Shown: piece by piece, positions 28,701 through 34,700 of the stretch | Position numbering within the stretch: position 1 is the stretch's first letter | How the letters are laid out: each line of letters starts with the position of its first letter | Assembly (NCBI RefSeq): GCF_053078305.1 | Contig: NZ_CP166879.1 | DNA: 64,000 bases | Strand: one strand, 5' to 3' | Program-made: the position numbers

Positions 28701-31700
28701 GAAGTTTCGTCTCGAATCACTGGACAATCCGGGGCAGTTTTATCAGGCGGATGTGCTGACTCAGGGCAAACCAGTGCTGCTTAACGTCTGGGCGACCTGG
28801 TGTCCGACCTGCCGTGCGGAACATCAATATCTGAATCAGCTTTCTGCGCAGGGCATCCGCGTGGTCGGCATGAACTATAAAGACGATCGCCAGAAGGCAA
28901 TCAGCTGGCTGAAAGAGCTGGGCAATCCTTACGCGCTAAGCCTGTTTGATGGCGACGGCATGTTAGGGCTGGATCTCGGTGTCTATGGCGCGCCAGAAAC
29001 GTTCCTTATTGACGGCAACGGCATCATTCGCTATCGCCATGCGGGCGATCTCAATCCTCGCGTCTGGGAAGAAGAGATCAAGCCGCTGTGGGAGAAATAC
29101 AGTAAGGAGGCCGCACAATGAGGTTTTTATTGGGCGTGCTGATGCTGATGATCTCCGGCTCAGCGCTGGCGACCATCGACGTGTTGCAGTTTAAAGATGA
29201 AGCACAGGAACAACAGTTCCGTCAGCTCACTGAAGAACTGCGCTGCCCGAAATGCCAGAACAACAGCATTGCCGATTCCAACTCGATGATTGCCACCGAC
29301 CTGCGCCAGAAAGTGTATGAACTGATGCAGGAAGGTAAAAGTAAGAAAGAGATTGTCGATTATATGGTGGCGCGTTACGGCAACTTCGTCACTTACGATC
29401 CGCCGTTAACGCCGCTAACCGTGCTGCTGTGGGTGCTGCCAGTAGTGGCTATTGGCATTGGCGGTTGGGTCATTTACGCCCGCTCGCGGCGTCGGGTACG
29501 CGTGGTGCCGGAAGCGTTTCCTGAACAAAGCGTACCGGAAGGTAAGCGTGCCGGATATGTTGTTTATCTGCCGGGTATTGTGGTGGCGTTAATTGTGGCT
29601 GGCGTCAGCTACTACCAGACTGGCAATTATCAGCAGGTGAAAATCTGGCAGCAGGCCACGGCACAGGCTCCGGCGTTGCTGGACAGGGCGCTGGATCCGA
29701 AAGCCGATCCGCTCAACGAAGAAGAGATGTCGCGCCTTGCGCTGGGGATGCGTACTCAACTGCAAAAAAATCCGGGAGATATAGAAGGTTGGATTATGTT
29801 GGGTCGCGTTGGCATGGCGCTGGGTAACGCCAGTATCGCCACCGATGCATACGCTACTGCGTATCGCCTCGATCCGAAAAACAGCGATGCCGCACTGGGT
29901 TATGCTGAAGCGTTGACACGTTCATCTGATCCCAACGACAACCGCCTCGGCGGCGAACTGCTGCGCCAGTTGGTGAGAACGGACCATAGCAATATTCGTG
30001 TGTTAAGCATGTATGCGTTTAATGCCTTTGAGCAGCAGCGATTTGGCGAAGCCGTTGCCGCGTGGGAGATGATGTTGAAACTCTTACCTGCCAACGATAC
30101 TCGCCGTGCGGTGATTGAACGTAGTATCGCGCAGGCGATGCAACATTTGTCGCCGCAGGAGAGTAAATAAAAAGAGGCCCGATGGTGATGCCATCGGGCT
30201 ATTTTTATTGTGCCCCGCGTTGTTGCAGGAACAGAATGGTGGCTGCCACGCGTGAGCGGACATTGAGTTTGCGCAGCAGATTGCGAATATGTACTTTTAC
30301 TGTCTGCTCTGAAATATTCAACACCGAGGCAATCTGTTTATTTGACAGCCCCTGTGCCAGCTCGTGCAGAACATCCAGCTCGCGCTCCGTCAGCACGCTG
30401 AAGGGATCTTCTTCCGCGCCAAACATTTCACGTTCATGTAAGTACTGATTGACGCGTTCGCTAAAGACTTTGCTGCCTTTCGCTCCGGCACGAATCGCTT
30501 CCAGCAACACTTCCGGGTCGCTGTCTTTCAACAGATAACCGTCTGCGCCTGCGTCTATCAGTGCAAAGACATCGCTGGAGGCATCTGATACGGTCAAGAT
30601 AATAATTTGCGCGGTAACGCCATCCCTGCGCAAGGCATTGAGGGTATCCAGGCCACTCATACCTTTCATATTCAGATCCAGCAAGATCACGTCGATATCC
30701 AGTCTATTCGCCAGATCGATCGCGCTCGCGCCGTCGCCCGCTTCGGCGACCACTTCAAAGCCAGGATCAAGCTCCAGTAACTGACGAACACCGCGTCGCA
30801 TAAGTGGATGATCATCCACAATCATCACCTGAAAAGGCGTTGCTTCAGGCATAGTAGTCTCCTGAGGTTTTATTAGAATCATTATGTTTGAGCGTAGCGT
30901 TGGTAACGCTACCAGGCGCGTGAATGTTACCCCATTTTATGTATGGACATGTAGTGAAAACTACAACCTTGCCGTTCGCTTTGGCATCATTTTCATTATA
31001 AAGACGGAATTTTGCATCAGCTTCTCATCAAGAAAAACAACTAAAAAATCAATCACAATACTTGTGCATTTCTTTAAACAGTTTTTAAAAACTGATTCCG
31101 GGTATGGAGCTATGGGTATTTTCTGTACCCAATGCTTTTAACAGCAATTAATTTCATAGGATGAAAGCTCAATGCATCAATCTGGTTCTGTTTCTCTTTG
31201 TCGTTCCGCAATATCTGTTCTGGTGGCTACAGCGTTATATTCACCCATAGCATTGGCATCAACAGTTGAGTATGGTGAGACAGTTGATGGTGTTGTCCTG
31301 GAAAAAGATATCCAGCTGGTTTATGGGACCGCCAATAATACGAAAATCAATCCTGGCGGAGAACAGCATATTAAAGAATTTGGTATAAGTAGTAATACTG
31401 AAATTAACGGCGGGTATCAGTACATTGAAATGAATGGCACCGCAGAATACTCCGTATTAAATGATGGTTATCAAATTGTTCAAATGGGTGGCGCGGCAAA
31501 CCAGACTACCCTCAATAATGGTGTGCTACAGGTTTATGGCGCGGCGAATGATCCCACGATTAAAGGCGGGCGCTTAATCGTTGAAAAAGATGGGATTACC
31601 GTCCTTGCCGCTATCGAAAAGGGAGGATTACTGGAGGTTAAAGAGGGGGGATTAGCGATTGCGGTAGATCAGAAAGCAGGCGGTGCTATTAAAGCAACCA

Positions 31701-34700
31701 CGCGGGTCATGGAGGTATTCGGAACAAACCGTCTCGGTCAGTTCGATATCAAGAATGGAATTGCAAACAATATGCTGTTGGAAAACGGCGGAAGTTTGCG
31801 AGTTGAAGAAAATGACTTCGCTTATAATACTACTGTAGATAGTGGCGGCTTACTGGAGGTTATGGATGGCGGGACTGCAACTGGCGTTGATAAAAAAGCA
31901 GGCGGAAAATTAATTGTCTCAACGAATGCGCTGGAAGTGAGTGGTACAAACAGTAAAGGCCAATTTAGTATAAAAGATGGTGTGTCAAAAAATTATGAAC
32001 TGGATGATGGTTCCGGGCTTATTGTTATGGAGGACACGCAGGCCATTGACACTATCCTTGATGAGCATGCCACTATGCAATCGCTGGGAAAGGATACTGG
32101 GACGAGAGTGCAGGCAAATGCGGTATATGATCTCGGTCGATCAGATCAGAATGGAAGTATCACGTATTCCTCAAAAGCCATCTCTGAAAATATGGTTATC
32201 AACAATGGCCGCGCTAACGTCTGGGCTGGCACAATGGTTAACGTTTCAGTCAGAGGGAATGATGGCATTCTTGAGGTCATGAAGCCGCAAATAAATTATG
32301 CACCCGCAATGTTGGTGGGTAAGGTAGTGGTTTCTGAGGGCGCTTCTTTTAGAACGCATGGCGCCGTGGATACCAGCAAAGCGGACGTTTCGCTCGAAAA
32401 TAGCGTATGGACCATCATTGCCGATATCACTACGACGAACCAAAACACCCTCCTCAACTTAGCCAACCTTGCGATGTCTGACGCAAATGTGATTATGATG
32501 GATGAGCCAGTGACTCGTTCATCAGTGACGGCAAGTGCGGAAAATTTCATTACGTTGACCACCAATACCCTGTCGGGAAACGGCAATTTTTATATGCGTA
32601 CCGATATGGCTAATCATCAGAGCGATCAGCTCAACGTCACCGGTCAGGCAACAGGTGATTTCAAAATATTCGTGACGGACACCGGTGCCAGCCCGGCAGC
32701 AGGAGATAGCCTTACACTGGTAACAACGGGCGGCGGTGATGCTGCATTTACGTTGGGCAATGCCGGAGGCGTTGTTGATATCGGTACGTATGAATATACC
32801 TTGCTGGATAATGGTAACCATAGCTGGAGTCTGGCAGAGAATCGCGCGCAAATTACCCCTTCAACCACTGATGTGCTAAATATGGCGGCAGCACAACCGC
32901 TGGTATTTGATGCAGAACTGGACACCGTGCGTGAGCGTCTTGGTAGCGTAAAAGGCGTTAGTTACGATACGGCGATGTGGAGTTCGGCAATTAACACCCG
33001 CAACAACGTGACCACTGATGCGGGAGCTGGTTTTGAGCAAACATTGACGGGCCTGACGCTCGGTATCGATAGCCGTTTCTCCCGTGAAGAAAGCAGTACA
33101 ATTCGCGGCTTGTTCTTTGGTTACTCTCATTCTGATATTGGTTTTGATCGCGGCGGAAAAGGTAATATCGATAGCTATACCCTGGGGGCTTATGCCGGTT
33201 GGGAGCATCAGAACGGTGCCTATGTTGATGGGGTGGTGAAAGTTGACCGTTTTGCCAACACCATCCATGGCAAGATGAGTAATGGGGCAACAGCGTTTGG
33301 CGATTACAATAGTAACGGCGCGGGTGCTCATGTTGAGAGCGGGTTCCGTTGGGTTGACGGATTGTGGAGTGTTAGACCCTATCTGGCCTTTACCGGCTTT
33401 ACCACAGATGGTCAGGACTACACGTTATCAAACGGCATGCGCGCGGACGTGGGAAATACCCGGATATTACGCGCTGAAGCGGGAACGGCGGTAAGCTATC
33501 ACATGGACCTGCAAAACGGTACGACGCTGGAACCCTGGCTGAAAGCCGCCGTGCGTCAGGAATACGCCGATTCTAACCAGGTGAAAGTTAATGACGATGG
33601 CAAATTTAATAATGATGTGGCTGGAACCAGTGGCGTTTATCAGGCTGGGATAAGGTCATCGTTTACCCCGACGTTAAGCGGTCATTTGTCAGTCAGCTAT
33701 GGCAATGGCGCAGGGGTAGAATCGCCGTGGAATACTCAGGCGGGTGTGGTCTGGACGTTCTGATAACAGAAAATAAACAGGCTGTGATGTGTCACGGTCT
33801 GTTTATCGAATTAATTGCAGATATAAAAAAACCAACCGTAAGGGTTGGTTTTTTTTGGGATTTTTGGTCGGCACGAGAGGATTTGAACCTCCGACCCCCG
33901 ACACCCCATGACGGTGCGCTACCAGGCTGCGCTACGTGCCGACTCGTGGCTGTTAATACTACCGTTTTCCACACCGATTGCAAGTAAGATATTTCGCTAA
34001 CTGATTTATAATTAATCAGTTAGCGATAAAACGCTTCTCGTCTGTCAGTACTTGCAATAACAAACTTAACTGTGGTTTTTCATCTTTCACTCTTTCACCA
34101 CGTAAGTTGTAAGTGCGGTATTTACCGTTATTGTTCAGCACCAGCGTCTTTTTCGGGGTGGTAATTGCCAGCGTATCGTTATCCGCTGCGGTAACCCAGT
34201 AATGACGGCGTTGAGGGTTGAACAAATCCTGACCTTGCGAATATTCGCTGGCAGGTGTGCTGACATGTAGCAGGCGTTGCATCAGCGTCGTCATCAGATC
34301 GGTATGATCAGTCAGCGCATTAATACGCTGCGCCGGCGTGCCTGGCCAGTGAATCACTAATGGCACCTGCAGATGACCGTGGGACCAGTCAAAGGTTTCT
34401 TCCTCTTCGCTCAGTGGAATACCCCGACCGGCAGTGATAATCACCACCGTGTTGTCCAGTTTGCCAGAATCACGCAGTGCATTGAGCACGCGGTTGATCT
34501 GGTCATCGACATTGCCTGCCGCCCGGCTATATTTCCGTGCAAATGCCTGCTGATTGCTGTCGTCAATGTTAGTGCCATTGAAAGAGACCCACGAGAACCA
34601 GCGGTTATCTTCTTGTGCGTAGCGGCCCAGCCAGTTGATCCACTGCGTGGCGGTCTGCTCGTCGGATTGGGTGCGTACGCTCGGCATCGAGAAATCTGAC

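Follow-up and report, generated by a model that had tools for sequence, protein, structure and literature searches.

Intact yejO autotransporter gene in a non-K-12 Escherichia coli chromosome and its relation to the IS5-interrupted allele of K-12

In the genome record of Escherichia coli K-12 MG1655, yejO (b2190, "adhesin-like autotransporter YejO") is a pseudogene. At the same locus, the stretch of E. coli DNA analyzed here (64,000 nucleotides of contig NZ_CP166879.1; hereafter the window) contains an uninterrupted reading frame. We therefore asked whether this frame represents a complete autotransporter gene, which of the two alleles is the usual one in the species, and whether the window could derive from K-12.

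The ORF list of the window contains at this position a single ATG-initiated frame of 863 codons plus stop (Table 1), in agreement with the earlier note, which had described an uninterrupted 863-codon yejO. When compared using megablast, the frame was 100% identical over all 2592 nt to the genes annotated "yejO: autotransporter YejO" in A16 and ETEC6335 (the identical, PGAP-named yejO product of A16 is WP_001625518.1), and it was 98.3% identical to K-12 b2190 when the insertion in the latter and one copy of its duplicated target were removed. The same 2592-nt allele occurred in five independent complete genomes among the 5426 complete E. coli genomes compared. Further, the gene lies between narP and the tRNA-Pro(GGG) gene followed by yejM (yejM/lapC in MG1655), and the gene order ccmH, narP (minus strand), yejO (plus strand), proL (minus strand) and yejM (minus strand) is the same in MG1655, A16 and LF82. 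The ORF is thus almost certainly the yejO ortholog of the E. coli chromosome, intact and in its usual narP-proL position, and encodes a classical, monomeric autotransporter of type Va; no result spoke against this identification.

Table 1. Positions of yejO, its predicted domains and its flanking features in the window.
Feature	Position (nt)	Strand	Basis
narP-yejO divergent intergenic region, presumed yejO promoter region	30853..31171		Composition; narP coordinates from A16 annotation
yejO coding sequence, intact	31172..33763	+	ORF list; nt sequence 100% identical to genes annotated "autotransporter YejO"
Predicted Sec signal peptide, aa 1-29, MHQSGSVSLCRSAISVLVATALYSPIALA followed by STV	31172..31258	+	Read from translation
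TTAT, site duplicated by IS5K in K-12; single and unoccupied here	31235..31238	+	blastn breakpoints and MG1655 junctions
Passenger domain with beta-helix repeats of the AIDA type, aa 30-555	31259..32836	+	Pfam, PDB, TIGR04415
Pertactin-like C-terminal passenger module, aa 431-555	32462..32836	+	Pertactin PF03212
C-terminal translocator beta-barrel, aa 602-863, ends ...VVWTF	32975..33760	+	Pfam, TIGR01414, 3qq2
Terminator-like hairpin and T-run, yejO-proL gap	33825..33855	+	Consensus scan, pattern match only
tRNA-Pro(GGG), proL, downstream neighbor of yejO as in K-12	33865..33941	-	ARAGORN; MG1655 and A16 annotation

In the MG1655 record, yejO consists of 67 nt plus 2525 nt (2592 nt in total), split by a 1195-bp IS5K element (insH8) with a 4-bp duplication. 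We also looked in this record for an uninterrupted MG1655 yejO; the record shows a two-fragment pseudogene, in line with the earlier note, which had described this gene as an IS5-interrupted pseudogene. The blastn breakpoints, which overlap by 4 bp, placed the insertion point after base 31238 of the window. The MG1655 junctions read ...GCGTTAT/GGAAGGTGCG...CGCACCTTCC/TTATATTC and the equivalent site of the window reads GCGTTATATTC, so that the window has neither the IS5 copy after nt 67 nor the TTAT duplication of the K-12 allele. Whereas the window gene is continuous, IS5K in K-12 detaches the initiation codon and the larger part of the signal peptide from the remainder of yejO. No match to IS5 was found within the 64-kb window by blastn with the MG1655 IS5K as the query, and the colinear alignment to MG1655 revealed no other inserted element at 5712-64000; the claim that no IS lies nearby is borne out by both results. 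When IS5K and one TTAT were removed from the MG1655 gene, the two alleles differed at 45 of 2592 nt and at 18 amino acids (845 of 863 residues identical), nearly all of which are in the passenger (aa 72-325) and one in the barrel. The MG1655 gene without IS5K is still an open 863-codon frame, suggesting that the K-12 lesion is recent.

The distribution of the two alleles was determined among the 5426 complete E. coli genomes. The yejO query had megablast matches in 5421 genomes, at least 80% of the gene was covered in 4281 genomes, and most of these 4281 kept the full-length frame. The exact K-12 IS5::yejO junction was detected in 357 genomes, and all 60 of the matches listed from these 357 were K-12 laboratory strains or laboratory-derived lines. 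In contrast, a 200-bp stretch across the target site was uninterrupted in 5015 genomes, with K-12 genomes giving half-length matches. Intact yejO is therefore the common, majority state in E. coli and probably the ancestral one. Thus, the intact gene of the window represents an already known, ordinary state, and the IS5K insertion after nt 67 is derived and confined to the K-12 laboratory lineage. In other lineages, yejO has been lost by internal deletions. In LF82, it is annotated as an incomplete 909-bp pseudogene with a frameshift and an internal stop, and it resulted from two deletions. Such B2 remnants share the locus and flanks of the window copy and are 92-97% identical to it over the kept segments; however, LF82 lacks equivalents of window positions 31644-32647 and 33102-33733, whereas the window copy is complete. 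Further, ST131 was reported to be without yejO (PMC5654935). Compared with the K-12 allele, the window gene gave a dN/dS of 0.23 over its whole length and of 0.04 for its C-terminal half, which contains the barrel, indicating that yejO is under purifying selection.

The translated sequence predicts the full architecture of a type Va autotransporter. The N-terminus exhibits the features of a signal peptide: R11 provides a basic n-region, a hydrophobic core follows at about aa 12-24, and A-L-A (aa 27-29) before S30 resembles a cleavage motif. These features were judged by eye and by a Kyte-Doolittle scan (11-residue means up to 2.15) rather than by a trained predictor. In the passenger, Pfam AIDA (PF16168) matched in two stretches (171.8 bits, E=3e-51), Pertactin (PF03212) matched the C-terminal module (155.6 bits, E=6.7e-46), and the strand-loop-strand repeat model TIGR04415 scored 62.5 bits (cutoff 30). 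Sequence matches to the passengers of Ag43, an AidA-I family adhesin, TibA and pertactin were found in PDB, and those to the solved beta-helices of Ag43, TibA and pertactin point to a YejO passenger of the beta-helix type. The outer-membrane barrel was identified by Autotransporter PF03797 (157.6 bits against a cutoff of 26, E=6.3e-46; aa 602-841, profile positions 1-254 of 255), by TIGR01414 (370 bits, cutoff 16, E=1.5e-110; aa 456-863) and by the alignment of the BrkA beta-domain structure 3qq2 with aa 582-863. The translation ends in ...AGVVWTF, and thus in the aromatic residue that constitutes the beta-signal for BAM. NCBIfam contained no curated family specific to YejO: the domain-level barrel model was the only one of its kind above cutoff, and PRK09945, auto_Ag43, auto_AIDA-I and BafA were all far below theirs.

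Among characterized autotransporters, Ag43, AIDA-I and TibA have the type Va organization of YejO and carry beta-helix repeats of the class found in its passenger (Pfam AIDA, TIGR04415), and their structures were matched with E values of 1e-25 to 1e-36 (Ag43, 7koh and 4kh3; AidA-I family adhesin, 7ko9; TibA, 4q1q). However, YejO, with 863 aa in total, has a shorter passenger than these three proteins, and its scores for the equivalog models auto_Ag43 (129.1 bits) and auto_AIDA-I (68.1 bits) were far below the cutoffs of 1200, so that the functional analogy to Ag43 and AIDA-I is one of repeat type only. Unlike the glycosylated adhesins of the AIDA-I/TibA type, yejO is not adjoined by a heptosyltransferase gene (aah/tibC type); its neighbors are narP and proL, and no ORF other than yejO is annotated between these two genes at this locus in the matching genomes. 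Vag8 (7akv), BrkA and pertactin (1dab) of Bordetella share the Pfam Pertactin and Autotransporter domains with YejO and align to aa 368-863, which comprise the C-terminal passenger module and the barrel. The likeness is limited to this junction and the translocator, whereas the N-terminal passenger parts, the organisms and the loci are unrelated.

The type Va secretion route is well established for proteins of this kind. On this model, the N-terminal signal peptide would route YejO through Sec, and the C-terminal barrel of about 260 residues would be inserted into the outer membrane by BAM, helped by the aromatic beta-signal ...WTF. The passenger would then be threaded to the cell surface, where the AIDA/Ag43-type beta-helix would fold from the pertactin-like C-terminal module onward. 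Once exposed, the passenger would most likely mediate adhesion or cell-cell aggregation, as the analogous proteins Ag43, AIDA-I and TibA do. We found no functional test of intact YejO in the yejO papers examined, in which a K-12 delta-yejO strain serves as a neutral "wild-type" control, or the gene appears for its IS5 copy or in presence/absence lists. Because the model strain cannot make YejO, this predicted surface protein of natural isolates is still essentially uncharacterized in its intact form. At yejO, the K-12 reference gives a false picture of the species, as it carries a strain-specific IS5 loss of a gene that is full-length in most E. coli. Catalogues of adhesins and autotransporters would be better served by a non-K-12 allele such as the window copy.

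The sequence upstream of yejO is AT-rich. The composition profile showed a GC content of 0.372 at 30800-31399, compared with 0.51-0.57 in the adjoining genes, and the intergenic region itself is about 37% GC. A consensus scan found no sigma-70 match 5' of yejO; the sole match in the yejO region falls within the coding sequence, on the minus strand, and shuffled versions of the region gave more matches than the region itself. K-12 has other, cryptic autotransporter adhesins that are silenced in laboratory conditions, and the AT-rich upstream region of yejO is compatible with such silencing. Downstream, the scan detected a 13-pair stem, AAAAAAACCAACC-GTAAG-GGTTGGTTTTTTT, with a T tract after it.

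From position 5712 to 64000, the window is colinear with MG1655 in long blocks of about 98.4% identity, and this limited identity indicates that the window belongs to a different E. coli lineage rather than to a variant of K-12. The window DNA is thus not K-12, and its best backbone matches were isolates outside K-12 that came from animal, food and water sources. The earlier note had called the background K-12-like in gene order but not MG1655 itself. This was right but understated with respect to the divergence, and the K-12-like order does not extend to the left end, where the end of a prophage replaces rcsB beside rcsD.

An intact frame between narP and proL would also be seen if the window belonged to a K-12 derivative that had lost IS5K by precise excision, because such an event would leave the same sequence, with a single TTAT and a 2592-nt ORF. 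The 45 nt that distinguish the two yejO alleles and the divergence of about 1.6% over the 58 colinear kb led us to reject this origin. Further, the Eib/Eaa prophage end in the window is absent from K-12, and the closest backbones are those of the non-K-12 isolates described above. We therefore regard excision as having practically no chance of being correct. Assemblies are known to go wrong at repeated IS elements, and an IS copy in yejO might have been collapsed out of the assembly. This is extremely improbable, because the site is uninterrupted in 5015 of the 5426 complete genomes, five independent genomes carry the identical allele, and the window contains no IS5 copy that might be mistaken for this locus.

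Whether this intact yejO is also active is a separate matter. The frame could be open but cryptic or functionally dead in the window strain, either silent or inactivated by missense changes, as an incipient pseudogene. The AT-rich upstream sequence that lacks a consensus sigma-70 match, the lack of functional YejO studies in the literature found, and the independent losses, namely the K-12 insertion and the LF82-type deletions, which suggest that the gene is dispensable in some niches, are all consistent with this explanation. However, most of the 4281 genomes with at least 80% coverage keep a full-length frame, the dN/dS values of 0.23 and, in the barrel half, 0.04 indicate purifying selection, all domain models are matched over their whole length, and the protein retains the terminal residue of the beta-signal; we therefore consider inactivity improbable in the window strain. 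At the other extreme, the independent losses of yejO by IS5 in K-12 and by deletions in B2-type strains might reflect repeated niche-specific selection against surface display rather than neutral decay, with intact YejO being an expressed and functional aggregation or adhesion factor. We put forward this proposal tentatively and consider it, as a whole, rather doubtful.

A prophage sits in the 5' end of rcsB, and the first 5.7 kb of the window are its cargo end. This end contains a SPATE gene of the eaa type at about 1175-5167, which was identified by Pfam Peptidase_S6 and Autotransporter, and, at 1-244, the last 80 codons of a YadA-like trimeric autotransporter gene of the eib type, the rest of which lies beyond the window. 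With yejO, these account for the three autotransporter genes counted in the earlier note, a number that holds only if the truncated eib-type gene is included. In the collection of complete E. coli genomes, none was identical to the whole window: the best identity was 99.6% for the 24 kb downstream of yejO and 99.5% for the prophage end, in different strains. The Eib/Eaa prophage physically uncouples rcsB from rcsD and is present at this site in few strains, most of which are STEC. Its insertion could alter Rcs envelope-stress signaling in these strains.

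When the open reading frames of the window were listed, the autotransporter gene yejO was found at 31172..33763 (+) as one ATG-initiated open frame of 863 codons and a stop, uninterrupted as the earlier note had described it. The record of the E. coli K-12 reference strain MG1655 (NC_000913.3) annotates yejO (b2190) as a pseudogene in two joined parts, a 67-nt "gene fragment 1" and a 2525-nt "gene fragment 2", between which lie the IS5 copy IS5K (1195 nt, transposase insH8) and four more bases. The MG1655 gene is therefore not likewise uninterrupted, and its status as an IS-interrupted pseudogene was confirmed. 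Further, IS5K used as a blastn query detected no copy in the whole 64-kb window, consistent with the claim that no IS lies nearby.

When the window was aligned with MG1655 at yejO, two blocks were obtained, whose ends in the window overlapped by 4 bases (31235-31238). The MG1655 sequence reads ...GCGTTAT before IS5K and TTATATTC... after it, and the window at the matching site reads ...GCGTTATATTC.... We concluded therefore, from the overlap and the junctions, that TTAT is the target-site duplication of IS5K and that it is single and unoccupied in the window. When IS5K and one TTAT were removed from MG1655 yejO, an open frame of 863 codons was restored, which differed from the window allele by 45 nt and 18 residues; judged by its sequence, this is as expected of a gene that was sound until IS5K entered it recently. 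The K-12 yejO lesion was described independently by two papers, one of which lists the yejO copy, in direct orientation, among the 11 IS5 elements of BW25113 (PMC11677980). TTAT (31235-31238) differs from CTAA/CTAG, the example sites flanking IS5 copies in that paper, and appears to be an atypical IS5 target.

By megablast, yejO was matched in 5421 of 5426 complete E. coli genomes, chromosomal every time. Identity across all 2592 nt was ~100% or 100% in five of the 5426 (A16, ETEC6335, Res13-Sevr-PER07-33, TB06051 and D8), in which the matching feature is annotated "yejO: autotransporter YejO". A 200-nt query across the K-12 yejO/IS5 junction (match, at least 80% of query length) was matched in 357/5426 genomes. 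Of the 357 matches, 60 were listed, and each of these was a K-12 laboratory strain or a lab-derived line, among them MG1655 derivatives, C600, DH5alpha, DH1, J53, HB101-related RR1 and NCM3722; among these listed matches, the IS5 allele is private to the K-12 lineage. In the opposite search, a 200-nt stretch of the window with the target site in its middle detected the uninterrupted site in 5015/5426 genomes, K-12 strains giving half-length matches. At least 80% of yejO was covered in 4281 genomes, counting K-12 genomes with two joined pieces, and ~1140/5426 genomes fell below 80%, keeping only about 9-36%. In the B2-type strain LF82, a 909-bp pseudogene annotated as "frameshifted; internal stop; incomplete" occupies the locus (L006 2501-3409); two internal deletions have removed what corresponds to window 31644-32647 and 33102-33733. 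Such deletion remnants are a third state of yejO. A comparative study reported yejO missing in ST131 and present in ST38, ST405 and ST648 (PMC5654935). From the genome counts of each state, therefore, intact yejO is the majority state in E. coli and most likely the ancestral one.

Thus the observation and interpretation of the earlier note were both correct. An intact yejO is what E. coli normally carries, and intact versus IS5-broken yejO is a well-known strain difference, already in the reference annotation and literature. The most useful by-products are that the window was shown to be non-K-12 and that an Eib/Eaa prophage end at rcsB was identified at its left edge.

Window 5712-64000 was colinear with MG1655 2316184 to 2256152 in reverse orientation at about 98.4% identity, a divergence that makes it a different E. 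coli lineage and not a K-12 variant. Besides IS5K, structural differences were found at the ccmH-narP spacer, the eco-mqo tandem repeat and the left window end. Between ccmH and narP, MG1655 carries about 150 bp extra (2291176-2291326), absent from the window (30171-30204), A16 and LF82, in which the spacer is about 34 bp; the extra stretch is perhaps a short repetitive extragenic element that K-12 has acquired. The eco-mqo intergenic region (window 16803-17139) holds 3.0 copies of a 113-bp tandem repeat (94% matches) and the MG1655 array is longer (2304390-2305065), so the copy number is strain-variable. Window 1-5711 has no counterpart in K-12. K-12-like gene order outside MG1655 itself, as previously proposed, thus holds for 5712-64000 but not for the left end.

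That left end belongs to a lambdoid prophage, of which it forms the right (cargo) end. In comparisons with a phage collection, window 1-977 matched the eibE/orf-156E end of phage P-EibE at 98.1% identity, and the eaa-type SPATE autotransporter gene, whose GDSGS serine-protease motif (nt 1952) is intact, matched eaaA of P-EibA at 95.7%; a review of SPATEs describes eib and eaa as linked on prophages of ECOR-9 (PMC3153244). Only 35 of the 5426 complete genomes carried the Eib/Eaa cassette, most of them from human isolates of STEC; in 13 of the 35 it adjoins rcsD. Strain JNEC-KY171 carries this cassette as the right-hand cargo of a roughly 60-kb prophage, whose integrase lies against intact rcsB and whose opposite end lies against rcsD. 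At the window junction (about 5711/5712), rcsB is reduced to ATGAACAA, beside the rcsD stop codon. The prophage is integrated in the 5' end of rcsB and physically parts two genes, rcsB and rcsD, that are direct neighbours in K-12. The count of three autotransporter genes stands for YejO, the SPATE and the eib-type gene, but the third is only an edge-cut fragment and is trimeric (type Vc).

The window has the gene order of A16, namely ccmH, narP (-), yejO, tRNA-Pro(GGG) (-) and yejM; in A16, narP lies on one side of yejO and tRNA-Pro/yejM on the other. The narP-yejO intergenic region (319 bp) is AT-rich (about 37% GC), and a consensus scan detected no sigma-70-like site in it. In Shigella flexneri serotype 1c, the proL tRNA beside yejO has been described as a boundary of prophage integration (PMC4924310). 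In the window (33764-33941), the yejO-proL site is unoccupied, with a spacer of about 100 bp containing a terminator-like hairpin.

Features of the window and of the YejO protein (nt, window positions; aa, YejO residues)
Feature	Position	Strand	Basis or detail
YadA-like trimeric autotransporter gene (eib-type), last 80 codons	nt 1-244		NCBIfam YadA_autotrans C-terminus, E=4e-20
Small ORF	nt 259-804
SPATE (eaa-type)	nt 1124-5167 (ORF); first ATG 1175		Pfam Peptidase_S6 + Autotransporter
dinI-like segment	nt 5458-5698
Hairpin with T tract, plausible terminator	nt 33825-33855		consensus scan
tRNA-Pro(GGG)	nt 33865-33941	-	between yejO and yejM
Signal-peptide-like N-terminus	ALA/S at aa 27-30		R11, hydrophobic core
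YejO passenger			AIDA-type repeats PF16168, E=3e-51; TIGR04415 strand-loop-strand repeat
Pertactin-like module	aa 431-555		PF03212, E=7e-46
Complete C-terminal barrel	aa 582-863 (BrkA barrel alignment)		PF03797, E=6e-46; TIGR01414, E=1.5e-110

As judged from these matches, YejO has all the sequence features of a classical type Va autotransporter, down to its C-terminus (...VVWTF). The type Va route comprises Sec export, BAM insertion and passenger folding. By this route, Sec would export YejO, BAM would insert the barrel, and the passenger would be translocated, folding from its C-terminus outward into a surface beta-helix. The passenger matched, in sequence, the beta-helix passengers with solved structures from Ag43, an AidA-I family adhesin and TibA, and by analogy with Ag43, AIDA-I and TibA the most likely role of the helix is in adhesion or aggregation. 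However, YejO is no equivalog of Ag43 or AIDA-I (NCBIfam, 129 and 68 bits; cutoffs, 1200), and no heptosyltransferase gene was found beside yejO.

Of the 45 nt that differ between the window and K-12 yejO, six are packed into 14 nt (window 31595-31608; yejO nt 424-437), where aa 142-146 read ITVLA in the window and GAVFV in K-12. Further, 17 of the 18 amino-acid differences fall within aa 72-325, in the repeat-bearing passenger. The cluster could be a small patch of recombination or intragenic conversion, or diversifying surface change. Between the window and K-12 alleles, overall dN/dS was 0.23, with 0.30 for the N-terminal half and 0.04 for the C-terminal half, the pattern of a gene that is under purifying selection and whose surface-exposed part varies more.
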